49,161 nucleotides of DNA from Treponematales bacterium (GTDB lineage: Bacteria; Spirochaetota; Spirochaetia; Treponematales; UBA12059): positions 1-49,161 of the forward strand of contig JBGSKZ010000745.1 in the NCBI GenBank assembly GCA_041741035.1. The letters are read 5' to 3'. Below the pieces are notes generated by a model, which worked only from the letters and a program-made list of their open reading frames with translations, did not search any database and had not been told where the DNA came from. Positions 5,033 through 43,174 of the stretch are shown here, in pieces (the first letter of the stretch is position 1; every line of letters starts with the position of its first letter). Both the position numbers and the translations under genes were made by a program.

Positions 5033-5104
5033 GCGTCCGTCGTATAGTGGCTATTACCCCAGCCTTCCAAGCTGGAGATGTGGGTTCGATTCCCATCGGA
5101 CGCT
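5033..5104 (+). tRNA. tRNA-Gly (anticodon UCC)
   Basis: Cloverleaf read by eye: acceptor GCGTCCG/CGGACGC, D-arm TATAGTGGCTATTA, anticodon stem CCAGC/GCTGG with loop CTTCCAA (UCC), T-arm GTGGG-TTCGATT-CCCAT, discriminator T. CCA is not encoded. Confidence 0.9.
5061..5104 (+). repeat. attL core: 44-bp direct repeat (3' half of tRNA-Gly)
   Basis: AGCCTTCCAAGCTGGAGATGTGGGTTCGATTCCCATCGGACGCT is identical to 44022-44065. Confidence 0.9.
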
Positions 5105-5122
5105 CTTGTGGAGCAAGGAATT

Positions 5123-5203: not shown

Positions 5204-6406
5204 ATGAGAGAGCCCTTTATCCTGTATAGGCGTGCCGACGGCGCTTTGGATGGCAAGGTCTTCTATGTGCAGTTCTGGTCGAACGAGGCCGGAAAATACA
5301 TCCTGAGACGGTCCGTCGCCTCCCTTCTTGCCGAAATCACTGGCGTCCTGCCTCCAAACACGAGTCCAACAACCAAGCCCGGAGCTCGCCGTATCGTCGA
5401 AGCATGGCTGCAGTCCCATCGGCCGGTTTCTGCTAAAGGGCAGGCGCTAACTTTACTTGATTATCTGGCGACGTTCTGGGCCGACGAGGGCCAATATGCC
5501 ATGGCCCTAAGAGCTCGAGGCAGGGCCATATCGCCGGCCTACCTGCAAAATAACCGCTACCTTGTGATCAACCATGCAAAACCCTATTTTGAGGCCCATC
5601 ATCCAGGTTTATCCCTCTCGCTCGTAACACCTGGGCACCTTGAAGGCTTCGTAATGGCGCTTTATAACTCGAAAACTATTTCGCCACGAACGGTAAACAC
5701 GGCACGTCAGTCGATCACAGTTCCGCTTGCTGAGGCCTATAGGCTGGGTTTGATAAGCTCGAATCCTGCTGCCCGGGTGGCAAAAATGGCAGAACCTAAG
5801 TCAGAACGCACCATTTTGACCATGGAAGAGGCCAAGAAGATTCTGGGAGGCCCGTGGCCGGATACCCGGTACTACGCGGTAAACCTGCTGGCGGCAACGA
5901 CGGGCATGCGCTTAGGCGAGATTCGCGGGCTGCAGCTCGATGACATCAAGGCAGGGGAAATAATCGTAAGGCACAACTGGCAGGATAAGGAAGGCCTCAA
6001 GGCTCCAAAGTGGGGAAGTTCCCGCATCGTCCCGCTCCCTAAACAAACCGAGGAGGTATTGAGAGAGGTAGCTGCACAAAGCCCATGGGGAGACGGGTTT
6101 GTGATCTATGGATCCAAAAAGGGCCGGGCGTTATCGAGAAAGTATATTCAGGATCAGTTCACAGAAGCATGCACCGCCGCAGGGATCCCGGAAAGCGAGC
6201 GAAGGATACGGCATCTTACGTTCCATACATGGCGTCATTACTATAATTCTGTCATGCGCGATAAGCTTCCGGACTACGCACTGCGCATGCTCACCGGGCA
6301 TAAGAGTGAGGAAATGACGGATCGCTACTCACACCTGACGGAGGAGCAGCGGATCGCGGCGAGTGCCTTGGCAAATGATATCTTCGTTGAGGCAAGAAAG
6401 ACATAA
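5204..6406 (+). CDS. Tyrosine recombinase / phage integrase
   Basis: 400 aa. Catalytic-domain motifs: GMRLGEIRGL (Arg), HTWRH (HxxR), GHKSEEMTDRYSH (Tyr). It lies 100 nt downstream of the tRNA. Confidence 0.9.
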   Translation: MREPFILYRRADGALDGKVFYVQFWSNEAGKYILRRSVASLLAEITGVLPPNTSPTTKPGARRIVEAWLQSHRPVSAKGQALTLLDYLATFWADEGQYAMALRARGRAISPAYLQNNRYLVINHAKPYFEAHHPGLSLSLVTPGHLEGFVMALYNSKTISPRTVNTARQSITVPLAEAYRLGLISSNPAARVAKMAEPKSERTILTMEEAKKILGGPWPDTRYYAVNLLAATTGMRLGEIRGLQLDDIKAGEIIVRHNWQDKEGLKAPKWGSSRIVPLPKQTEEVLREVAAQSPWGDGFVIYGSKKGRALSRKYIQDQFTEACTAAGIPESERRIRHLTFHTWRHYYNSVMRDKLPDYALRMLTGHKSEEMTDRYSHLTEEQRIAASALANDIFVEARKT

Positions 6407-6611: not shown

Positions 6612-8138
6612 TCAATAGTTTTTATAGAATGCTTCTGCAGTAAACTTAACAAACTCATCTTTTTGATCTATTCCTCGACTTATTACTTGCCATGGTTCCA
6701 ATCGTGATACCTCTGTCTGAAGGTCCTTTGCTGTTTTTTGACTGCAACCTAATATATCTTGAATAGAACTCGCAGATACACCATCACATTGAAAAATATA
6801 GGCAAACTCAAGAAGCTCCTGGAAGTTGAAGAACTTTTGCTGATAATCATTTGGTGACTGACTGGCAAAGAAAACCACTATTCCTTTTGATCTACCCTCT
6901 CGAATAATTCTCTGCAAAAATATATTCTTTTGGCCCAAATAATTATGCGCTTCATCAATTACAAGTATTGTTCGTATTGTTCTTTGATTATCAACAATAG
7001 GGCTATCAGGCAATACCGACATCTCTTTATACAATCGTTCAATCACAAGGTAAGCAACCAGTTCTTTAAGCACTGGCATCGAGTGAACATCAATTAATAA
7101 TGATCTATCCGTCAGCTTTTCGATTGGAGTTACATCTGAACCATGTGACCAGAATAAATTGAAATCTGATAAGTCACGGAGAACCTCAATAAGGCTGTCA
7201 TCCTTTTTCCCTTCTTCTTCATAACTCGAACGAGCAATATCATAGATATCCCTAAAATCTGGATATGGTATTCCTGTATTGGATCGGCTTGCATAAGCAG
7301 CACGAATGGCTTCTGTTAAGGCACCTTTCTGGACTACTCCAAGTTTAGAGTTAATAGACGCAAAGCTTTCTGCTTTCTCGCGAGCAGATATATTGATAGT
7401 TTGTTCATCGTAGTTTGGTAATATAAAAGGATTAATTGGAAGAGTTTGAGTACCTTGTAGAAGCCTATATACCTGTACTTTAGATACCTCTGTAAATTTA
7501 GAATTGTCTGCAACATCTCCTTTATAATCAAAATAAATAAAATTTGTTTGGTAATTTGATTGATGGCGAATGTCTGCTAGAATTTTTAACAAATACTGCG
7601 TTTTACCAACGCCAGGTTTTCCCATAATTGCCATGTGTGAATTCGCATGGATACGTGTATTGTTGAGTTCCATAACCACATCATTCTTTTGGAGAATCTC
7701 CTTACCGAGAAAAATCTCAAATCCTTTACCAAAAAGTTCTTTTCTTCCCCTAAACTCAATCCTTGAAACAAGCTTTTTTATTAATAAATCAGTATTATTT
7801 CCAGATTCTTCAAATATCTTTTTAAGTTTTAATGCACCATTATCAATATGATTCTTAATAATTGATTTATTTGAATAAAAGTAATCCTCTTCAAAATCAG
7901 GGCTTTTATATACAGCGCTAATTAGTGTTCGAATAAATAATTCATCTTGCCCCATAAATGTTGGGCGCTTAATTTCTGCGCCACTAAAATCTGAAGAAAC
8001 AGAAACATTTACACCATCCTCTGTAAGAGAAAGAATTAAAGCGATTCTGGCAATGACAAATTTTTCAAGTTTTGTTTCGAGCCGTAATGCACTCAATATT
8101 TCATCAGTTTCTCTTGTTGTATATAATCTATCAGCCAT
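6612..8138 (-). CDS. DndE-like N-terminal domain fused to a HerA/FtsK/VirB4-type (DUF87-like) P-loop ATPase
   Basis: N-terminus RLYTTRETDEILSALRLETKLEKFVIARIALILSL is DndE-like. Walker A MGKPGVGKTQ, Walker B ILVIDEAHNYL, then REGRSKGIVVFFASQSPNDY. It starts 2 nt after the DndD-like stop, with a GGAGG RBS inside that gene's end. Confidence 0.65.
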   Translation of the reverse strand: MADRLYTTRETDEILSALRLETKLEKFVIARIALILSLTEDGVNVSVSSDFSGAEIKRPTFMGQDELFIRTLISAVYKSPDFEEDYFYSNKSIIKNHIDNGALKLKKIFEESGNNTDLLIKKLVSRIEFRGRKELFGKGFEIFLGKEILQKNDVVMELNNTRIHANSHMAIMGKPGVGKTQYLLKILADIRHQSNYQTNFIYFDYKGDVADNSKFTEVSKVQVYRLLQGTQTLPINPFILPNYDEQTINISAREKAESFASINSKLGVVQKGALTEAIRAAYASRSNTGIPYPDFRDIYDIARSSYEEEGKKDDSLIEVLRDLSDFNLFWSHGSDVTPIEKLTDRSLLIDVHSMPVLKELVAYLVIERLYKEMSVLPDSPIVDNQRTIRTILVIDEAHNYLGQKNIFLQRIIREGRSKGIVVFFASQSPNDYQQKFFNFQELLEFAYIFQCDGVSASSIQDILGCSQKTAKDLQTEVSRLEPWQVISRGIDQKDEFVKFTAEAFYKNY

Positions 8139-8140
8139 TT

Positions 8141-10129
8141 TTAATCCTCCCAGAAGTAGCCGGTTTTAACAGTTGTTAATTCCTGCTTATGATCAAATTC
8201 AAGCTTGGCTGCACCAGACAAGTGGGCTTTCAAGATTTTATAGTAATTGGTGTCTATTTCCGTATCCGTTGAAAGTACAATTACTTGTTGCCCGGCATTT
8301 GGAAAATAGTTATTGATGATATTATCTCGATGTGTGCTGTCCAGCCTTGATAAAGGTGTATCGACAATGATCGGTAATTTTAATTGACTGGTTTGCGCAA
8401 GCCCCCATAGAAGTGAAACTGCAAACACTTCCTTTTCGCCGGCTGAAAGACCGGATTTTTTTATTTCATGGCCAGAACGATCGATTACTTTAATTTCGTA
8501 GGTTCTTTCATCGATTGTAATATCCTTGATGAGACCTGCTTTGCTGGACAATAGCCGGTACATTTCAAATGTCTTTTCTTGAAGTAGATGAATTTTGTTT
8601 TTTCTCAATCTGACTACAAATTGAGCAAGAAGATTGGCAATTGCATCACATTCGGAAATAAAATCAGCCTTGTCTTTTGATAGATGGTGTTTCTCATAGA
8701 GTTTTTCAATCTCAAGTTCTATTTCTTTGATTTTGTGCTCTATTATCAAAAGATCGTCTTCAATAAGTCTAAGCTGTTCGGTTTTTCTGCCTATCTGAAT
8801 AGCACTGTTTTCTATAGTCTCTTGAAGCTCTGAAAAGAGTTCTTGTTCCGAATCACTCGCTCCTTTACTTCTCGAAGATGCTTCTAAATCTTTGAGTTGA
8901 AGAATGATTTCATTTTTTTCTTCAATTAGTGGAGTAATTAGAAACACATCACTTTTTTCATAAGATTCTATTTGGTTTAATACTTTGGCAGCATCTCTTT
9001 CGGAAAGACTCAGTACTTTCGCAATGTTTCTTGATTGCCCATCATTCAAAAGTTGTTCGATTCTTTTTTCCAGTTCAAACATCTTCTTAGGTGAAAGTTT
9101 TTCTTTATATATTGGTTCTGGTTCTTCCACTACACGAACAATTTTTTTCGCAAGTTCAGCCGCATTTTCCCGAATAGCATCGCTTAGTGCTGACGAGCGC
9201 TCAGTATCAATCTGATTACTAATGCGATCAAACAAAGTTCCTGCTAATGAAAATGGCAGAAAAGATTCACATAATACTTTTATTTCACTTTCGATCTGGT
9301 TTAGGCGATTGGACAATTGAATCCGTTTTTTTTCATTTTGCCTGATAGAGTCCTTCGATTCAGGTGTCTGATTAAAAACTGCCTGAAACCTGGCTTTCGC
9401 ATCGTCCTGTTGCTCAGTGAATGACTTAATTTCCGCTCTGACTTCTTCTTTTTCCTGATGTTTTTTATAAAGTTTGGTTTTTTCTCTCTTTAATTCACTT
9501 TCTTTAAACTCGAGGTCCGCGTCAGTAATATCTACAAAGCCCTTTCGCTCTTCCTGTTTGAGATATGTTACATCAGTGGCAAGTTGATTAATATACTGGA
9601 TGCCCAGAGCTGCTTCGAGAGATGACTTGAGCCTAACTTCCGAGTGGTCGTCAGAAGCAATTTCCTGAATCTTCTCGCCGTCAAAGAAGAAAAACTGCGT
9701 AATCCCCGGAGGCATTGCAGCGCGGATATATTCTTGCCAAATCTCCTTATTTTGAACAGTTACACGCCTACCGTCTTTAACCACGACAAGACGTTCGGAC
9801 AGGTCTTTAGGCTTGGGGTCATCAATAGTACCTGCAGTCCATGACCTTTTTATTATGAGTTCAGCCCCATCATCTTCTTCAAGAACTACTTCAAAGGAAA
9901 CGGCTGTATTATTTCGAGACTTTTCTTTTCTGTTGATACAACGGTAAATTTCTTCATTTTTTACGCCATAAAGACAAAAGTTTATAGCCTCCATAATGGA
10001 GGACTTACCGGCACCGTTCATGCCGCCGATAAGAAATATGCTTTTATCTTTCTCACTCGCAGGGAATTGTATTTCGGTAGGAAACTGAAATGATTTGTAA
10101 TTTTCTATGACAAGTTTTCGCAGAATCAT
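8141..10129 (-). CDS. DndD-like SMC/ABC-type ATPase
   Basis: Walker A GGMNGAGKSS and a ~400-aa coiled-coil middle. C-terminus LSAGEKEVFAVSLLWGLAQ...LPIIVDTPLSRLDSTHRDNIINNYFPNAGQQVIVLSTDTEI closely follows the DndD C-terminal pattern. Confidence 0.75.
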   Translation of the reverse strand: MILRKLVIENYKSFQFPTEIQFPASEKDKSIFLIGGMNGAGKSSIMEAINFCLYGVKNEEIYRCINRKEKSRNNTAVSFEVVLEEDDGAELIIKRSWTAGTIDDPKPKDLSERLVVVKDGRRVTVQNKEIWQEYIRAAMPPGITQFFFFDGEKIQEIASDDHSEVRLKSSLEAALGIQYINQLATDVTYLKQEERKGFVDITDADLEFKESELKREKTKLYKKHQEKEEVRAEIKSFTEQQDDAKARFQAVFNQTPESKDSIRQNEKKRIQLSNRLNQIESEIKVLCESFLPFSLAGTLFDRISNQIDTERSSALSDAIRENAAELAKKIVRVVEEPEPIYKEKLSPKKMFELEKRIEQLLNDGQSRNIAKVLSLSERDAAKVLNQIESYEKSDVFLITPLIEEKNEIILQLKDLEASSRSKGASDSEQELFSELQETIENSAIQIGRKTEQLRLIEDDLLIIEHKIKEIELEIEKLYEKHHLSKDKADFISECDAIANLLAQFVVRLRKNKIHLLQEKTFEMYRLLSSKAGLIKDITIDERTYEIKVIDRSGHEIKKSGLSAGEKEVFAVSLLWGLAQTSQLKLPIIVDTPLSRLDSTHRDNIINNYFPNAGQQVIVLSTDTEIDTNYYKILKAHLSGAAKLEFDHKQELTTVKTGYFWED

Positions 10130-10317
10130 TTTGTGCTTCCTCCTGCGATCTCTCTTGATTTAAGTATCTCTCTAAGCGCATCGTAAATGCCGGAGCGTCG
10201 GTCCTTAAACTCATATTCGTGAACAGTATCAAGCAATTTCAATACTTTATCTAAATTAACTTCATGTTGTGCGCATAGTTCCTGCAATAACTGTTTATCT
10301 TCAATGGATAAATTCAT
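10126..10317 (-). CDS. 63-aa acidic helical protein, operon-internal
   Basis: Its stop overlaps the DndD-like start (ATGA). GGAGG lies 8 nt upstream of the ATG. I recognise no domain. Confidence 0.5.
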   Translation of the reverse strand: MNLSIEDKQLLQELCAQHEVNLDKVLKLLDTVHEYEFKDRRSGIYDALREILKSREIAGGSTK

Positions 10318-10358
10318 TGTTCAGCCTCCATTTTTAGTATAATGCATCTCCAGACGGT

Positions 10359-11747
10359 TCATTTCTGCACCGCCTGTTCAATGAGTTCTTCGACACGGCG
10401 TTTTGCTTGTTCGAGGAGTTGCTGGGATTCGTAAAGTGCCTTTTTTGACTCAGAAACAAGCCCCCCAAGTTCTTTCATTGTACTATCTGGCAAAACTGGT
10501 ATTTTTAGTTTCATTATAGAATTAGGTTTCCAGTGTACTATCAACGCGCCTGAACACTCTTGATCTATTTGCATTTTGCAAATACGTGAATTTATAACTA
10601 AACTCAAATATTCTTTGGGAATCTTGCTATCCTGTAATTGCAAACGAACAACTCCGCCGGAAACAATGCCTTCAATTTCAACTGTAACTGTATAACACAC
10701 ACCTGGTGTTCCATCTTTTGTTAGTAATAACTCTCCAACTTGTGGCTGATAACATTTTAGGGCTGAATATAATTGTGATGAAATGTATTTATCACTATTC
10801 CCTAGGCTGATGCCTTTATCTTTGATATTGCTTACACGAAGAAATGGAATTCCGTTTTCAACATATGAATGAGAGCCTACTTCAGTACCTTTAATAACTG
10901 TTGCCATTTTACCAAGTGGGGTGGTATTCAATTTTTTCAAATGCTCTTCAAGCATTCTGAATGGTATTTGATAATAATCCGCATCTGCCCGATTATTCCC
11001 CACCACCTCACTCAAGCGCGCCTCATACGACAGCGGCCTGTCAAACACAAGTTTATCCAGCCCTAGCTCGCGTTCGAGGAGTTCTTGGGCCTGGGTGTAG
11101 AGGGATTGGGAGAGATCGAGTCTCGAAAATGAATCACGAATGAGATTGCCAATCTTCTTTTGTTTTTCAATATCAATATAAGGGATGATTACTCTTTCAA
11201 CTTCACGGCAATTTAGATTTACCTGTTCTGTTCTCCGTGAATGTCGCCATAACTGATCCCGTCCATACTTCGTCTGAAAATATGCTGTCAAATAGTATGG
11301 ATCTAATAGATTACTTGTTTCAATTATTGCAACATTTTGATTTGTTACTCGTTCTGGGTCAATATCTCGTATAATCGCTGTTCTCCCAACAATTTCAGGA
11401 GTTGCTCCTATAATGGTAACTACAACTGAATCATTAGGTATAAAATCATTTTTTTTTAAAACTCTTTTTGGTAAGAAAAAACAGTTTGAGTAATCTATCC
11501 TGCCTTCTCGTAAAGTATTAGTTTTAATAAAGTGAACAAGTTCGTCGTCTTTTGTGATTCTGCGATCTCTAGGGGTATGACCAGTCCTAACAGGGGATGA
11601 AAGTAGCTTTCCTAGTTTTTTAATACTATATTTATCTGAAAAACACGCCCATAACTTATCGTCTTTAATATATTGAGGGCTATAAAACTCTCCATCAAGT
11701 CTAGTATATTGTAAACTTGACAAATTTACCTCACTCCAAACAGCCAT
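10359..11747 (-). CDS. hsdS: Type I-like restriction-modification specificity subunit (two TRDs)
   Basis: 462 aa. Two variable TRD halves are separated by a conserved helical spacer (LYTQAQELLERELGL) and end in a second helix (LYESQQLLEQAKRRVEELIEQ). The ATG shares 1 nt with the methylase stop (TAATG). Confidence 0.85.
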   Translation of the reverse strand: MAVWSEVNLSSLQYTRLDGEFYSPQYIKDDKLWACFSDKYSIKKLGKLLSSPVRTGHTPRDRRITKDDELVHFIKTNTLREGRIDYSNCFFLPKRVLKKNDFIPNDSVVVTIIGATPEIVGRTAIIRDIDPERVTNQNVAIIETSNLLDPYYLTAYFQTKYGRDQLWRHSRRTEQVNLNCREVERVIIPYIDIEKQKKIGNLIRDSFSRLDLSQSLYTQAQELLERELGLDKLVFDRPLSYEARLSEVVGNNRADADYYQIPFRMLEEHLKKLNTTPLGKMATVIKGTEVGSHSYVENGIPFLRVSNIKDKGISLGNSDKYISSQLYSALKCYQPQVGELLLTKDGTPGVCYTVTVEIEGIVSGGVVRLQLQDSKIPKEYLSLVINSRICKMQIDQECSGALIVHWKPNSIMKLKIPVLPDSTMKELGGLVSESKKALYESQQLLEQAKRRVEELIEQAVQK

Positions 11748-14470
11748 TATTCCGCCTCCCAGAAATCAAACTTGTTTTTCTGAGCAAAGCGAATAAAGGC
11801 TTCAGCAATACAAAGCTGGTCATCAGGTATTTTATTGGCCTCAGCTAGGTTTTCTGCACTTAAATTGTAGTTTACAAGGTCTTGATTGATTATAGGTTGG
11901 CCGTCTTCGAACTCCATCAGGTTCCCATTTCCATCAGTCATGTGCTCATAATCGCCGGAATTGTTTTTACCGCCCCGTTCACTCACTGCCATAAATATAG
12001 GGTAATCCAGTTTTTTCGCTACTTCTGCATCAATCCAGCGATTCTTGAGCGAGCCGATCAGGTCACCATCACCAAGAATGATTTGCAGTTTTCCTTTGTT
12101 GGTGAGAAGTTTCAGTTCGTATTCTGCTTCAGGGATAGCATTCTCTAGAGACTTAATCTCAGCCTTTATCTGCTTTTGTTGAGTCTTCTGTTTTTCCTTG
12201 AGAGCTTTTTCTTGTTCTTTATAATTCGCTTTGATTTCAGCCTTTGCGGCTCTATCAGCGATCTCAAGTTCGCGGTCCCGTTCCAACTGCAATGCTTCGA
12301 AGTCAGAATCAAGATCAGAAAGTTTCTGTTTTGCTTTTATCAGGCTCGACCTAAGCTCATTAATTTTATCATTCATAGTATCAATGTTCTCACCTGCATC
12401 CATTGATCCAGCACTGTCTGCAGCTTCGAGGCCTTCTTCAACGGATTCATTATCGTCATCCTGTGTTTCTTCATCAGAAGTAAAGATTTCAAGCATCAGC
12501 TCGGCAATCGCTTCGGGGATTTCTTCATCAGGTATGTCTTTGTCGTACAGTTTATTTGATAGCAAATCTCGAATTGTTTTTTCATAGTCAGGGCACTTTG
12601 AAGCAACTTTTTGTTTCACTTCTTCGATATTCGCTAATTGTTCATCTGTATATTTTTGAGTAAAAAGGACCGATGTTTTTGTTCCGGTGTGGGGTTTGAA
12701 AGTATTCCCATGCAAACCGACTACGGCTAAAAGTCTAGCTTTCCTGAGTATCCATTCTCGAATGAAAGCAAGCGAGGAGTTATTAAACTTACCCTGTGGC
12801 AATACTATCGCTGCACGACCGCCAGGTTTAAGAAATTTCAATATTCTTTCAATAAAAAGAACATCTCTCTCTTCTTTGGCCTGCTTGTCTTTAGCGCGTT
12901 TTAGTGCCGGCTTCGCAAGGTCGTAGTAAGCAAGCATCTTCTTATCTTTCATCTCGCCTGCAAAGGGTGGATTTGCGAGGATTACATCAAATTTTAGTTC
13001 GTCAAAATAACGCCATGCGAGGTCTTCATCACGGAGCAGATTCGGTTCGTCTGCTGTTGTTGGTTTATTTTTCAACAATTTAGCTTCTTTTAAACCCTGC
13101 ATCAGCTTTTGGCCGGATGAGGTGCTATACCAGGTCTTTGGATCTAGACTGCTGACATCGGGTCCGAAAATATTTGTGTGTCCATCTCCGGCAATTAGCA
13201 TTAATGCACGGGAAGTTTTCGCCGCACGAAGCTCAAAGTCAATACCCCAGAGATACTTTGCAGCATAGTTATGTTTACGCTTAAATCTGTCATCACTCGA
13301 TTTTGCTGGATAACACCAATCCATTGCATGAAGAAGAAATCCCCCAGAACCACACGCAGGGTCCATAACAAATTCATGCCTCTTAGGATTAAGCATACGA
13401 ACACACATTTCAACAACATGTCGGGGTGTAAAAAACTGTCCCTTTTTCTTTTTTGCCTCAGTAGGAAGCAAATATTCAAAAGCATCATCCATTATCCGTA
13501 GATTAGAACCCATTAGCCGGACGCCTTCGATGGGACCTACACAAACAGCAAGATGATCTTTTCTCAATTTAATATCTTCATTTTCATCAAAAATACCAGG
13601 CCATTCAGCAGATGCTTTCTTGAATAATTTATTAATTCGGTCATATGTAATTTCTGGATCAAGCGACTTCCTGAACTCTACAACTTGATCTCTTCGATTT
13701 TCCAATGCTTCCTTTTCATCCCAAATTTTGGCAAAGATGAGCTTGAATATTTCATTGAATTCGTCGACGCCGCTATCGGCAAGGACAAGTTCTTCCAAAT
13801 CTTGAACAATCTTTTTAAAATTAAAATTTGTTTTTAGGTGGCCGAGCGTCTTTTTAGCTTCGAGAACATCTTTAGGCTCTTTGCCGCGTTTGGGAATATC
13901 AAATAGCGTGTCATCAAAGTCTTTTGGGTACGGTCTATAGAGTATGATGCTGTCACTTCCATTGGACCAAACCCCTACTGGTGAACCTTCAGCATTTAAA
14001 TAGCTTTTTAATTGCTCAATCCCGTCCTTCCTTTTTGGTTTTTTTACCTCGATAATAATTTTAGGTGTCTGCTTGGTCGCATCGGAGTAGACAACAATAT
14101 CTGCAGCTTTTGTATTTACTTCTGTACCGAAGTGAATACTTTTTTCAAGTTCAAGTTCTCCTGGTTGATATTCATATACATTCAATAGCTTATAAATCCA
14201 TAATTGACGTACTATTTCCTCCGGATTAGATTTTCCATCTTCTGAATATACTTGTACCTCTTCCTTTCCACTAGAAAAAGGCACAAAGCTTTTCATGAAG
14301 TATTTTGTCTTTCCGGCTTCACGGCCTGATTCAATAATTTTAGGATAAATACTCACAATTTCATGAATAGGGCTGCCCAAAGTTTCAAATTCTGTTAATT
14401 CATATTGTGTTGATGGATCCTTAAATATTCTTTCGATAATTTCTTTAGTATTCATTGTTGCTTCTTTCAT
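11747..14470 (-). CDS. N6-adenine DNA methyltransferase fused to an N-terminal HSDR_N-like PD-(D/E)xK domain (type I M / type IIB A-subunit-like)
   Basis: N-terminus AADIVVYSD...PKIIIEVKKPKRKDGIEQLKSYL...VGVWSNG is restriction-endonuclease-like. MTase motif I is VMDPACGSGGFLLHA and motif IV is ILANPPFAG. An acidic plus coiled-coil insert spans about aa 660-800. Confidence 0.85.
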   Translation of the reverse strand: MKEATMNTKEIIERIFKDPSTQYELTEFETLGSPIHEIVSIYPKIIESGREAGKTKYFMKSFVPFSSGKEEVQVYSEDGKSNPEEIVRQLWIYKLLNVYEYQPGELELEKSIHFGTEVNTKAADIVVYSDATKQTPKIIIEVKKPKRKDGIEQLKSYLNAEGSPVGVWSNGSDSIILYRPYPKDFDDTLFDIPKRGKEPKDVLEAKKTLGHLKTNFNFKKIVQDLEELVLADSGVDEFNEIFKLIFAKIWDEKEALENRRDQVVEFRKSLDPEITYDRINKLFKKASAEWPGIFDENEDIKLRKDHLAVCVGPIEGVRLMGSNLRIMDDAFEYLLPTEAKKKKGQFFTPRHVVEMCVRMLNPKRHEFVMDPACGSGGFLLHAMDWCYPAKSSDDRFKRKHNYAAKYLWGIDFELRAAKTSRALMLIAGDGHTNIFGPDVSSLDPKTWYSTSSGQKLMQGLKEAKLLKNKPTTADEPNLLRDEDLAWRYFDELKFDVILANPPFAGEMKDKKMLAYYDLAKPALKRAKDKQAKEERDVLFIERILKFLKPGGRAAIVLPQGKFNNSSLAFIREWILRKARLLAVVGLHGNTFKPHTGTKTSVLFTQKYTDEQLANIEEVKQKVASKCPDYEKTIRDLLSNKLYDKDIPDEEIPEAIAELMLEIFTSDEETQDDDNESVEEGLEAADSAGSMDAGENIDTMNDKINELRSSLIKAKQKLSDLDSDFEALQLERDRELEIADRAAKAEIKANYKEQEKALKEKQKTQQKQIKAEIKSLENAIPEAEYELKLLTNKGKLQIILGDGDLIGSLKNRWIDAEVAKKLDYPIFMAVSERGGKNNSGDYEHMTDGNGNLMEFEDGQPIINQDLVNYNLSAENLAEANKIPDDQLCIAEAFIRFAQKNKFDFWEAE

Positions 14471-14683: not shown

Positions 14684-15514
14684 TTAGGACAAATCTTCAT
14701 CATCATCTTCTTCTTGGCTTTCCATTTCAGATACAGTACCTTTACCACCTGAAAAATAGCCAGTTGATTCACCTGCTTTAAGTGCATTATTAATCCGTTT
14801 AATTGATTCCTCTAAAATAGTTAAAGCTACTTTTATATCTGACTCTTTTTTAATTACAAATCTACACCATCTTGGAGATAGTTTTTCGTTTGTTATCTGT
14901 GTGCCCTCTATTAAACTACTACCACAAAAGCATTTTATATTAATTTGTGTCTTTTTTACCCTAATCGAGGCAAACGCGCGTTGCGGAGAATACCAACCGA
15001 TGTATTTCTTGCCTATCTTCATCCAAACTTCAGGGTTATTTTTTTCAATCCCTTCAAATATAGCATCGAACCAACCTCGTAATTTATTAACTGAATCCTT
15101 ATTTTTAAAATATGAATCGAGCGATTCATCCGTAATAGATGTTTCATTCTCTATTGGCTTTTTTATTGAGTAATTTTCGAAACTACTAATCTCTGTTTTT
15201 AATTCAATTACTTCAATTGGACAGTCTTTCCAATTATGTTCCCAGCATATTATTAAATCACATTTATCAGGATCATGCCCATGTTGAATAAAATTCTTAC
15301 TTTGATATTCGAATTCTATAGAAACTCGTTCCCATCCTTTTCCAACGAACCGTCTTCCAATACAATCAGGGAAACCAGGTTTTATTTCTTCTATATACAT
15401 ATTTAAATCATCTGCTACCTTACCAAATAAAAATATGACACCATTCTCATTAATTGGTGAGTAGACTAATCCGCGGAAATTTATTAAATCTCCAACTATC
15501 GATTTATCAGCCAT
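14684..15514 (-). CDS. Hypothetical protein, N-terminal nuclease-like (PD-(D/E)xK-type) region, acidic C-tail
   Basis: 276 aa. FPDCIGRRF...ERVSIEFEYQSKNFIQHGHDPDKCDLIICWEHNW resembles restriction-endonuclease-fold cores. The C-terminal half (YIGWYSPQRAFASIRVKKTQINIKCF) resembles DUF5655-type domains. Low GC, separate transcription unit. Confidence 0.4.
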   Translation of the reverse strand: MADKSIVGDLINFRGLVYSPINENGVIFLFGKVADDLNMYIEEIKPGFPDCIGRRFVGKGWERVSIEFEYQSKNFIQHGHDPDKCDLIICWEHNWKDCPIEVIELKTEISSFENYSIKKPIENETSITDESLDSYFKNKDSVNKLRGWFDAIFEGIEKNNPEVWMKIGKKYIGWYSPQRAFASIRVKKTQINIKCFCGSSLIEGTQITNEKLSPRWCRFVIKKESDIKVALTILEESIKRINNALKAGESTGYFSGGKGTVSEMESQEEDDDEDLS

Positions 15515-15881: not shown

Positions 15882-16274
15882 TTACCCGCCACCGGACGCG
15901 ACATTTTTACTTTTAGTTTTGAGAGCGAGACCTTCAGCCAGGGTCTCTACAGCGCTCAGACTATGCTCATCAAGTTGGAACAGATTGTCTATTACTTTTG
16001 AAATTCTTTTGGGCGGTCGCCATCCGGTGGGGTCCTTACCTGTGACGAGGTATTCAACCGATACATCAAGCAGCTCAGCTATCATAAATGCGTGAGATAC
16101 CGAAGGTTCTTGTTTTTTTGCCATCGCATTGTACAATGTTTTGGGGCTTATGTTCAAATGCTTGGCTAGCCATTTTAGGGTGGTGTTTTTATATATTAGG
16201 GCTTGGTTCACGCGGTCCCAAAAGTCCATGGCATAAGTATCACCCAAAAAATCTCTAATTGCACGAAAAATCAC
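15882..16274 (-). CDS. XRE-family HTH repressor-like protein (paralogue 1)
   Basis: HTH TTLKWLAKHLNISPKTLYNAMAKK and shared block VEYLVTGKDPTGWRPP. The likely true start is ATG 16229 (MDFWDRV). About 41% GC. Confidence 0.65.
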   Translation of the reverse strand: MIFRAIRDFLGDTYAMDFWDRVNQALIYKNTTLKWLAKHLNISPKTLYNAMAKKQEPSVSHAFMIAELLDVSVEYLVTGKDPTGWRPPKRISKVIDNLFQLDEHSLSAVETLAEGLALKTKSKNVASGGG

Positions 16275-16308
16275 ACTTTTTTAAAACAAAGTGTGGTTTC
16301 TAGAGTCT

Positions 16309-16686
16309 TTAGCCAGTACGAGCGGAGTCTTGCCTAACTTTGCTAGCCTCAGCAAGCCCGTGCGCGAGCACTGATACTGCGTTTAAATCGGGATCATCTA
16401 GGGCAAGGAGGTCATCAACGATTCGCGCTAATCTTATCGGAGGCTTCCAGGAGATTTGATTCTCTCCACTTACTAGGTATTCAACGGTTACACCAAGAGC
16501 TGCCGCAATAGCAACTGCCTCATCTACTCTCGGGAGCCGTCCAAGTCTGCGCCAACCAGATACCGTGGTCTCGGCTTTGTTTATTTTACCCGAAAGCCAT
16601 CGGTAGGTTGTTCGTTGAGAAACTATCTCTGTTTCAACCCTATCCCAGAATTTCATATACCTATTATCGTCAATAATACTACGCAA
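16309..16686 (-). CDS. XRE-family HTH repressor (CI-like, paralogue 2)
   Basis: HTH TTYRWLSGKINKAETTVSGWRR. It is divergent from the early rightward genes. The likely true start is ATG 16656 (MKFWDRV). Confidence 0.7.
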   Translation of the reverse strand: MRSIIDDNRYMKFWDRVETEIVSQRTTYRWLSGKINKAETTVSGWRRLGRLPRVDEAVAIAAALGVTVEYLVSGENQISWKPPIRLARIVDDLLALDDPDLNAVSVLAHGLAEASKVRQDSARTG

Positions 16687-42507: not shown

Positions 42508-43002
42508 CTATTGTGATTGAAATATAATTGTAAAAACCATATCGTCTGCATGAAATCTAAATCCAAGAATGTAATTCTCTTCTAACCATGGCTTTTTTGA
42601 GGCTTTTTTATATGTATACATTATGAGTTCGTTATCACTAAAATCCGGTTTTCCATTTCGATCTAGAATCTCGGCTCGCGTATTTCCAATAGTACAACCA
42701 TTAAAAATTGAATATCTTGAGCTTGAAATTACAAAATTTGAAACCAATAAATCGTGCTCATAATAGCCAATTATAATGCCACTATATATAAGGTTATAAA
42801 AGCCAGGTTCATCACCATCCTTTTTTACAAGTTTTTGTTCTATTGGATTTCCGAGTATTTTCAGGACTTCATTAATATTTTGATCTAGATAGATTTTTGC
42901 ACTACTTTCGTTATCGGTTATATACATCTCGCACTTTTCTATTGAGAAAATTGAAGTCCCGCTGAAAAGAGCTAAGGCAATTCCAAGTACAAGGATTTTC
43001 AT
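42508..43002 (-). CDS. Hypothetical secreted protein
   Basis: Signal peptide MKILVLGIALALFSGTSIFS. GGAGGAAAGC RBS. About 31% GC. Confidence 0.5.
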   Translation of the reverse strand: MKILVLGIALALFSGTSIFSIEKCEMYITDNESSAKIYLDQNINEVLKILGNPIEQKLVKKDGDEPGFYNLIYSGIIIGYYEHDLLVSNFVISSSRYSIFNGCTIGNTRAEILDRNGKPDFSDNELIMYTYKKASKKPWLEENYILGFRFHADDMVFTIIFQSQ

Positions 43003-43174
43003 GCTTTCCTCCGTTTAGCCCAGCTCACCCTAGACATAATCCCCGATTAGTGTAAAAGTTGTTCCGAATACGCTAAGAGCGGCAATTTTACTCCCCTTTG
43101 AGAAAAAAAGCTAATTTAAAAAGGAAGGTACCTATTAAGCAGAAATTGGTTTCGCACAATATATTCTATGAATC

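Follow-up and report, generated by a model that had tools for sequence, protein, structure and literature searches.

BsaXI belongs to the Type IIB restriction-modification (R-M) enzymes, is of the form (RM)2S and requires just S-adenosylmethionine and Mg2+ (PMC11997821). MADS, from Pseudomonas aeruginosa SMC4386, is an anti-phage defence that has been found by experiment to be keyed to methylation; it comprises eight genes over ~22 kb, including a kinase. On the side of the Dnd systems, Pfam describes the family PF20306 as 'Sp-DndD, small protein found in certain Dnd DNA modification systems', and a fusion of DndE to HerA beside a DndD-related ATPase (HerA/FtsK 'clade-3') is mentioned by Rakesh et al. 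2024 (PMC10853773), citing Krishnan 2020. Here we describe a five-gene operon in a 49,161-nt stretch of DNA from a Treponematales bacterium (JBGSKZ010000745.1). This stretch is hereafter called the window, and all positions refer to it unless another locus is named. The operon encodes a BsaXI-like RM subunit, a specificity subunit (S), the small protein Sp-DndD (Sp), DndD, and a DndE-HerA fusion. Our favoured explanation, to which we give a probability of about 0.55, is that it is a methylation-keyed defence cassette of R-M type, in which the Dnd-derived ATPases would provide ATP-driven scanning or translocation.

The five open reading frames (ORFs) span 6612-14470. All are on the minus strand, co-directional and translationally coupled, and are as follows.

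11747-14470, minus strand: gene 1, RM subunit (RM/methyltransferase), 907 aa
10359-11747, minus strand: gene 2, S, specificity subunit with two target recognition domains (TRDs), 462 aa
10126-10317, minus strand: gene 3, Sp-DndD small protein, 63 aa
8141-10129, minus strand: gene 4, DndD, 662 aa
6612-8138, minus strand: gene 5, DndE-HerA, 508 aa

The RM and S genes have 1 nt in common (TAATG), a 41-nt gap with GGAGG lies between S and the small-protein gene, the Sp and DndD genes overlap by ATGA, and DndE-HerA follows DndD after a 2-nt gap with GGAGG ahead of it. An initial annotation of the sequence had placed the five ORFs at exactly these positions and had described all of these junctions correctly. 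It had also stated that DndC, DndA, DndB and HsdR are missing, and a scan of every ORF of at least 300 aa in the window indeed found no HsdR-, DndA-, DndB- or DndC-like ORF. The promoter and terminator scan gave results no better than chance.

Gene 1 consists of an N-terminal PD-(D/E)xK nuclease, a helical connector, a gamma-class N6-adenine methyltransferase (MTase) and a coiled-coil, 'knob/paddle'-like C-terminus. It scores 70 bits against Pfam HSDR_N_2 (gathering cut-off, GA, 25), 117 bits against N6_Mtase and 511 bits against the PADLOC model MTase_I. Its two catalytic domains are located as follows.

13901-14242, minus strand: nuclease domain of gene 1, aa 77-190, with the triad D124 ... 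E141-V-K143
12596-13495, minus strand: MTase domain of gene 1, aa 326-625, with motif I DPACGSGGF (D370-F378) and motif IV NPPF (N500-F503)

A profile built from 15 homologues of gene 1 matches RM.BsaXI (8w0p, 916 aa) with an E value of 1e-42. The aligned segments comprise the nuclease (IEVK motif), the connector with the MTase, and a C-terminal region (EVAKxLDYPIFMA), and the IEVK motif lines up with FFFIEVKAPNK of BsaXI; identity to BsaXI is low, and the match of the nuclease segment is weak (14 bits). D124, E141 and K143 are invariant in the 15 homologues and at least 95% conserved in 36, and motif I and NPPF of the MTase are likewise invariant among the homologues. Identity between loci is 79% for the nuclease domain and 81% for the MTase domain. 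Because gene 1 is homologous to RM.BsaXI over its full length and has an intact triad, restriction and modification are both predicted to be encoded.

Gene 2 scores 25.4 bits against Methylase_S (GA 22) and 111 bits against a PADLOC Specificity_I model, with two-TRD matches, in two stretches, to many models of this type; its PDB matches are EcoKI S and S.BsaXI. The protein is hypervariable, with a mean identity between loci of 28% versus ~70% for the other genes and an entropy of 2.3 versus 0.7-0.8, which is the expected pattern where diversifying selection acts on a specificity subunit. By architecture, genes 1 and 2 are a predicted complete R-M enzyme of an ATP-independent type.

Gene 4 exceeds the cut-off of the DndD equivalog model TIGR03185 (368 bits; cut-off 245.85). 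Among PADLOC models it scores 451 bits against DndD and up to 408 bits against PbeC, and DndD and PbeC models are the sole matches (all 11 listed) of its coiled coil. It aligns end to end with the DndD of a canonical dndBCDE-dptFGH cluster at 29% identity (E 9e-73). The ATPase motifs are conserved, namely Walker A (G35-S43, with K42), the signature LSAGEK, and a Walker B/D-loop IIVDTPLSRLD (D590). In gene 5, two domains are fused.

7764-8138, minus strand: DndE domain of gene 5, aa 1-125; Pfam DndE 43 bits (GA 25)
6615-7736, minus strand: HerA/FtsK-type ATPase domain of gene 5, aa 135-508; DUF87/HerA 26.7 bits (GA 23.2)

The DndE domain scores 37 bits against TIGR03184 (cut-off 71.85), and its hhalign match to canonical DndE is weak. 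The best PDB match of the ATPase domain is the C-terminal domain of DptH (7es4, E 7e-21), and the PADLOC models for the DndH C-terminus and mad8 are matched with 134 and 74 bits, respectively. Walker A (GKPGVGKT, K179), Walker B (VIDEAH, D395/E396) and the arginines R413/R416 are conserved, and Q427 stands at the end of the next strand; K179, D395/E396, R413/R416 and Q427 are all invariant. Between loci, the DndE domain is 59% identical versus 78% for the ATPase domain. The conserved motifs of genes 4 and 5 support the favoured explanation. The DndE-HerA fusion itself is said to have been described, probably for the first time, in Krishnan 2020.

Gene 3 belongs to PF20306 (39 bits; GA 27.2), and its relatives carry the NCBI name 'DNA modification system-associated small protein'. 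Four PADLOC and two NCBIfam models of DndC are matched by Sp at positions ~395-455 (494-543 in the longest models). In hhalign, the Sp profile aligns with residues 447-499 of a canonical 544-aa DndC with a probability of 93.6%, an E value of 2e-7 and 34% identity. Resting on these matches between models and on hhalign, Sp is a predicted homologue of the C-terminal segment of DndC. The protein has 16 invariant positions across 28 homologues, and a model from AlphaFold2 (AF2) gives three helices with moderate confidence (predicted local distance difference test, pLDDT, 71). When 1.84 billion representatives were searched with the Sp profile, almost only stand-alone small proteins were returned. 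Matches of Sp in the PDB to TEL-SAM fusions were dismissed as sums of weak repeats.

The same segment is found as a separate ORF in a more distant cluster. On the megaplasmid of Methylorubrum extorquens AM1 (locus L081, 5464-10446), there is an unannotated series of genes for a PAPS-reductase (380 aa), an Sp-like protein (70 aa), DndD (694 aa) and DndE-HerA (514 aa). Its DndE-HerA is distant from that of the window (28% identity), and the hhalign probability of its Sp-like ORF is 79%. Judging from gene content, this cluster is likely a cousin of phosphorothioate type, with DndC already divided between a catalytic body and a small protein, and the window family is by the same comparison one in which the sulfurtransferase gene is swapped for a BsaXI-like RM+S pair. 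The homology of Sp to DndC, together with the separate Sp-like ORF of M. extorquens AM1, supports the favoured explanation.

The domain calls of the initial annotation agree with these results, since DndD, DndE, HerA, HSDR_N, N6_Mtase and Methylase_S all score above curated Pfam or NCBIfam cut-offs. Gene 1 had been called an HSDR_N-like PD-(D/E)xK domain joined to an N6-adenine MTase, gene 2 a two-TRD HsdS, gene 4 a DndD-like ATPase of the structural maintenance of chromosomes (SMC)/ATP-binding cassette (ABC) type, and gene 5 a fusion of DndE with HerA/FtsK. Two of its statements need revision. The absence of HsdR is real, but the locus is not a Type I system that has lost its nuclease, as gene 1 carries its own. 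The 63-aa 'acidic' protein has the size given, but it is only mildly acidic (isoelectric point 5.6; 12 D/E versus 10 K/R) and belongs to a known family.

How often the five genes occur together was followed through relatives of DndE-HerA, which form more than 900 protein clusters at E <= 1e-10 in a search limited to 8000 candidates. Such a relative is encoded by 201 of 185,579 species-representative genomes, and 80 loci were analysed. The best 120 relatives are 506-513 aa long (nearly all 508-509), are 71-92% identical and come from many phyla; across the 80 loci, identity is 67-92% over ~15 phyla. Clustering of the 1240 neighbourhood ORFs of these loci recovered DndE-HerA at 77 loci, DndD at 76, RM and Sp at 46 each, the ~212-aa protein described below at 41 and S at 40, and none of the 1240 ORFs, lying within 10 kb, belongs to the PAPS-reductase (DndC) or cysteine-desulfurase (DndA) families. 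Loci with at least 6.5 kb available upstream of DndD were taken as informative (n = 49). A complete RM+S pair is present at 36 of them, partial copies at five and none at eight, and every RM copy is co-directional with the operon. This agrees with the linkage of the trio (genes 3-5) to methylase and S genes, without dndC, that the initial annotation had proposed to look for, and it supports the favoured explanation. Dozens of unrelated genomes from ~15 phyla show this gene order, so the arrangement is more than chance. In addition, pairwise identities co-vary (rho) between DndE-HerA and DndD (0.81), DndD and RM (0.78), and DndE-HerA and RM (0.66); the value for DndD and RM is comparable to that for the two ATPases and is a further point for the favoured explanation.

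The family also has variants. At 33 loci, a gene for a ~212-aa protein lies between Sp and DndD. The N-terminus of this protein is helical and conserved and carries a (V/I)PxPxxL motif, and its C-terminal DNA-reader domain, of Mrr_N or RAMA type, is swappable. Examples are found at loci L028 (7374-8009) and L044 (5962-8009) and at 39 other loci, sometimes in two or three tandem copies or downstream of DndE-HerA. The closest relatives of the window (91-93% identity; L001, 6641-7825; L083, 1067-2251) have a gene for a 394-aa NOV_C (PD-ExK) nuclease translationally coupled upstream of Sp, and at L001 a YhcG/DUF1016 nuclease gene lies between RM and S. RhuM or DarT/Macro genes are inserted at other loci. 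The window represents the minimal five-gene form, without the ~212-aa, NOV_C and YhcG genes. Its tight junction of Sp and DndD is found at 10 loci, and RM+S is kept at all 10.

The genes present, their homologies and intact catalytic motifs, and their conserved synteny and co-variation are directly established, and on this ground the following mechanism can be proposed. The operon would be a horizontally acquired, intact cassette carried as prophage cargo, made up of two modules that are inherited together. Genes 1 and 2 (module 1) would be a BsaXI/BcgI-like enzyme of Type IIB style, presumably assembled as (RM)2S, in which S would read a bipartite target, the gamma-class MTase would write N6-methyladenine (m6A) marking self, and the N-terminal PD-(D/E)xK domain of the RM polypeptide would cut unmodified DNA. 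Module 2 (genes 3-5) would descend from the DndCDE DNA-scanning machine, with the DNA-binding domain of DndE now fused to a HerA/FtsK ring translocase. It may load on DNA through DndE and then scan, loop or pump DNA with ATP, and Sp would serve as a docking or adaptor piece on DndD, as we propose for the C-terminus of DndC. Module 2 would thereby replace, in function, the superfamily 2 (SF2) motor of HsdR, so that RM+S could find, join or hold unmethylated sites, or so that cleavage could be gated. What we infer in this proposal is that the proteins form a complex, that they depend on ATP, which way control runs and that the operon acts in defence at all. Support by analogy comes from MADS, which is keyed to methylation and whose MAD2, MAD5 and mad8 match genes 1, 2 and 5.

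A more specific form of the proposal is that Sp, DndD and DndE-HerA are a new kind of restriction motor. An ABC ATPase of SMC-like type and a ring translocase, both inherited from the phosphorothioation machinery, would be docked through a DndC-derived three-helix adaptor and would make a Type IIB-like RM+S enzyme an ATP-dependent complex for long-range restriction. We put this forward tentatively, with the odds somewhat against it. If it is true, the operon represents a new mechanistic class of R-M systems related to MADS, in which the SF2 motor of HsdR/Res has been replaced.

Several points weigh against the favoured explanation. Type IIB enzymes such as BsaXI need no ATPase, and module 1 could work alone. 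The coupling of RM+S to the trio is not obligatory, as the eight informative loci without the pair demonstrate: two have other MTase or R-M genes (an N6_N4 MTase with TdeIII; an Eco57I-like protein of 930 aa), another four have no such gene in the vicinity, and the remaining two are degraded. The window could be a reduced or partly disabled version, which is conceivable given that it has neither the ~212-aa reader gene nor the NOV_C gene. Finally, the AF2 monomer of gene 5 is poor (pLDDT 61) with a shallow alignment in which every sequence is more than 70% identical. The first two of these points would also fit two independent systems that travel together, a self-sufficient Type IIB R-M enzyme and an autonomous Sp-DndD-DndE/HerA module with its own trigger, for which a defence of the 'HerA/FtsK capture' type or a DNA-maintenance device are candidates. 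Four intact loci do consist of Sp, the ~212-aa gene, DndD and DndE-HerA with no MTase within 7-10 kb, two loci pair the trio with unrelated MTase or R-M genes, and defence genes often cluster. Nevertheless, we consider such independence unlikely, because the RM family lies directly upstream in the same orientation at 41 of the 49 informative loci, RM and DndD co-vary as tightly as the two ATPases do, neither a nuclease nor any other effector is encoded by the trio of the window itself, and all 10 loci with the tight Sp-DndD junction have RM+S.

The cassette might also be a modification-only epigenetic machine, in which the DndD/DndE-HerA scanner delivers the MTase processively and no restriction takes place. 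DndCDE is thought to deliver phosphorothioation processively in such a manner, and Sp corresponds to that piece of the modification enzyme DndC which adjoins DndD. Rakesh et al. propose a DndD-DndE core that is able to recruit other modifications. What makes a purely epigenetic role improbable is that the nuclease triad does not vary and its domain is conserved to the same degree as that of the MTase, that S is hypervariable in the manner of R-M systems, and that the cassette is mobile and patchy, with relatives that carry accessory nucleases (NOV_C, YhcG) and toxin-antitoxin genes. Phosphorothioation, if the rest of the genome provided DndC and DndA/IscS in trans, would account for a DndD above its equivalog cut-off and for the PAPS-reductase gene that adjoins the distant M. 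extorquens DndE-HerA, and IscS can replace DndA. We regard it as very hard to sustain, since there is no DndC-like gene within 10 kb at the 80 loci or in the 49-kb window, the slot of DndC holds a 63-aa remnant-like protein and an m6A R-M pair, and no housekeeping PP-loop enzyme substitutes for DndC according to Rakesh et al.

If the coupling of the two modules is functional, the DndD-DndE 'scanner' would be a portable chassis that can serve not just phosphorothioation but also base methylation and restriction, and ABC/SMC-like and HerA/FtsK motors, in place of SF2 helicases, would be able to drive R-M enzymes. With five genes to the eight of MADS, the operon would then be a compact relative that is simpler to dissect, and the C-terminal segment of DndC would gain the role of a DndD adaptor. 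At present the family is annotated just as 'DndE family protein' and 'DndD', which is a mis-annotation and can inflate the counts of phosphorothioate systems.

The operon is cargo at the integrase end of a ~39-kb prophage inserted at tRNA-Gly, between the integrase and the repressors. The features that delimit it are as follows.

5033-5105: tRNA-Gly, whose 3' end is the attL site
5061-5104, plus strand: attL, a 44-nt perfect direct repeat at the tRNA-Gly 3' end
5204-6406, plus strand: integrase of the tyrosine type
15882-16686: two CI-like repressors
44022-44065: attR, partner of attL with the same 44-nt repeat

Further prophage genes encode Ant, a replisome organiser, HNH, large terminase, portal, major head and tape measure proteins. 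With the att repeats, integrase, repressors and phage structural genes in place, the cargo slot between integrase and repressor that the initial annotation had assigned to the operon is borne out. Its view of the composition holds in part: the operon is low in GC against a replicon of ~60% (GC content 0.379, left flank 0.594, remaining prophage 0.559), but the value of 33-36% was not reproduced (0.346-0.397 per gene). In other hosts, the GC of the operon follows that of the flanks (r = 0.80, range 0.34-0.61), so the contrast here indicates that the operon was acquired recently and probably came from a low-GC donor. Its best relatives (92-93% identity) are in a metagenome-assembled genome of Bacillota. 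Translational coupling, discordant GC and the position next to the integrase together fit mobile defence cargo. The integrase and repressor of the window have no homologues at related operon loci, so the prophage location is particular to this window, and the close operon family was not found in phage and plasmid collections.

Other elements of the window were also noted. A 276-aa gene with a GC of 0.325 is encoded at 14684-15514, also on the minus strand, with 213 bp between it and the operon downstream. Its sole family match is a weak one to DUF5655, with none in PADLOC, PHROG or the PDB, and its N-terminus has a PD...ExK-like string (FPDC...IEFEYQSK). It was rejected as a sixth component because it is missing from all 80 related loci, and a 276-aa gene found downstream of DndE-HerA in close relatives is unrelated to it. 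Beyond attR there are degenerate copies of the tRNA-Gly 3' end/att site at 44232-44279 and 47251-47298, which suggests serial integrations at a tRNA-Gly hotspot. Six tandem 21-nt iteron-like repeats at 21318-21483, inside the replisome-organiser gene (20835-22001), are probably the replication origin of the prophage. Other low-GC morons (22225-23217; 42508-43771) carry a gene for a ClpP-like SDH-type serine protease and an Imm5-like immunity gene; the neighbour of the latter encodes an unannotated protein of 164 aa, and the pair lies just inside attR. A tRNA-like element reported by ARAGORN at 18227-18297 (plus strand), among the early genes of the prophage, has an aberrant two-base anticodon loop.

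Compared with known systems, the five genes do not fall into one named class. PADLOC-DB v2 has no model set specific to them and returns generic matches, namely MTase_I, Specificity_I, DndD/PbeC, the DndH C-terminus, mad2/5/8 and DndE, in line with the failure of the initial annotation to match a named system. Its description of the operon as uncharacterised is right with regard to function, but the pairing of DndD with DndE-HerA and the Sp family had already been noted or named (Rakesh 2024, Pfam, NCBI). No experimental work on Sp-DndD, PF20306 or the operon family was found in the searchable literature. The conserved union of RM+S with Sp-DndD-DndE/HerA appears to be undescribed in the texts that were searched, with Krishnan 2020 lying outside that search.

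Among R-M systems, genes 1 and 2 are of Type IIB by architecture, as far as their sequences tell. The window RM has the same order of nuclease, connector, gamma-class N6-adenine MTase and helical C-terminus as the Type IIB enzymes BsaXI and BcgI, is of similar length to RM.BsaXI (907 versus 916 aa), and is accompanied by a separate two-TRD S subunit, as in BsaXI. However, BsaXI and BcgI are two-gene, ATP-independent systems, whereas the pair in the window sits in a conserved operon with two ATPases and Sp, which is atypical for the class. With Type I systems, the window has in common an HsdM-like gamma MTase, a two-TRD subunit of HsdS type and a nuclease of the HSDR_N family, but it is without the HsdR SF2 translocase, and the nuclease is fused to the MTase instead. 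In relation to MADS, the HerA-type ATPase of the window is related to mad8, and its RM and S are homologous to MAD2 and MAD5 below equivalog level: gene 1 scores 269 bits over aa 77-620 against NCBIfam MAD2 (cut-off 720) and gene 2 136 bits against MAD5 (cut-off 400). The MacSyFinder rule of the MADS authors makes MAD6, MAD7 and MAD8 mandatory; of these, mad8 is matched in part (74 bits). No match to mad7 was found for any window gene with a complete match list, and none to mad6 in the coiled coil of DndD (all 11 matches) or among the top matches listed for its two heads; the models of MADS, in turn, leave DndD, DndE and Sp of the window uncovered. With mad6 and mad7 unmatched and the MAD2 and MAD5 scores far below their cut-offs, the operon is, on profile evidence, not MADS.

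Among the Dnd-related systems, DndFGH/DptH shares only the HerA/FtsK ATPase domain with the window, which is without DndF, DndG and the N-terminal domains of DptH. The CxC-ABC/PbeABCD systems follow the same logic, in that an ABC ATPase-DndE core and a small protein are coupled to base methylation and not to phosphorothioation. They differ in that the window ATPase is of the DndD clade and not of the CxC clade with its Zn hook, there is no HKD-SF2 PbeA (no HKD or SF2 ORF in the window), the methylases of PbeABCD act on cytosine whereas that of the window is an N6-adenine RM fusion with an S subunit, and the PbeABCD small protein is rapidly evolving or disordered whereas Sp is highly conserved. 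With DndBCDE, the window shares a bona fide member of the DndD clade, a DndE domain, the Sp homologue of the DndC C-terminus, and the order [DndC piece]-DndD-DndE. It has no PP-loop/PAPS-reductase body of DndC, no DndA and no DndB, its DndE is fused to HerA/FtsK, and it is coupled to an m6A R-M pair; without the DndC body and DndA, it is not a Dnd phosphorothioate system. There is also a correspondence with the neighbourhoods of Krishnan 2020 and Rakesh 2024. Genes 3-5 fit the catalogued neighbourhood of a small protein, a DndD-clade ATPase and an adjacent DndE-HerA, with the same fusion beside DndD; M. extorquens AM1 offers an example with a PAPS reductase, and the window family has RM+S in its place. 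In short, the parts and the general logic of the operon are known, and it is a real, ordinary-looking but uncharacterised variant of them.

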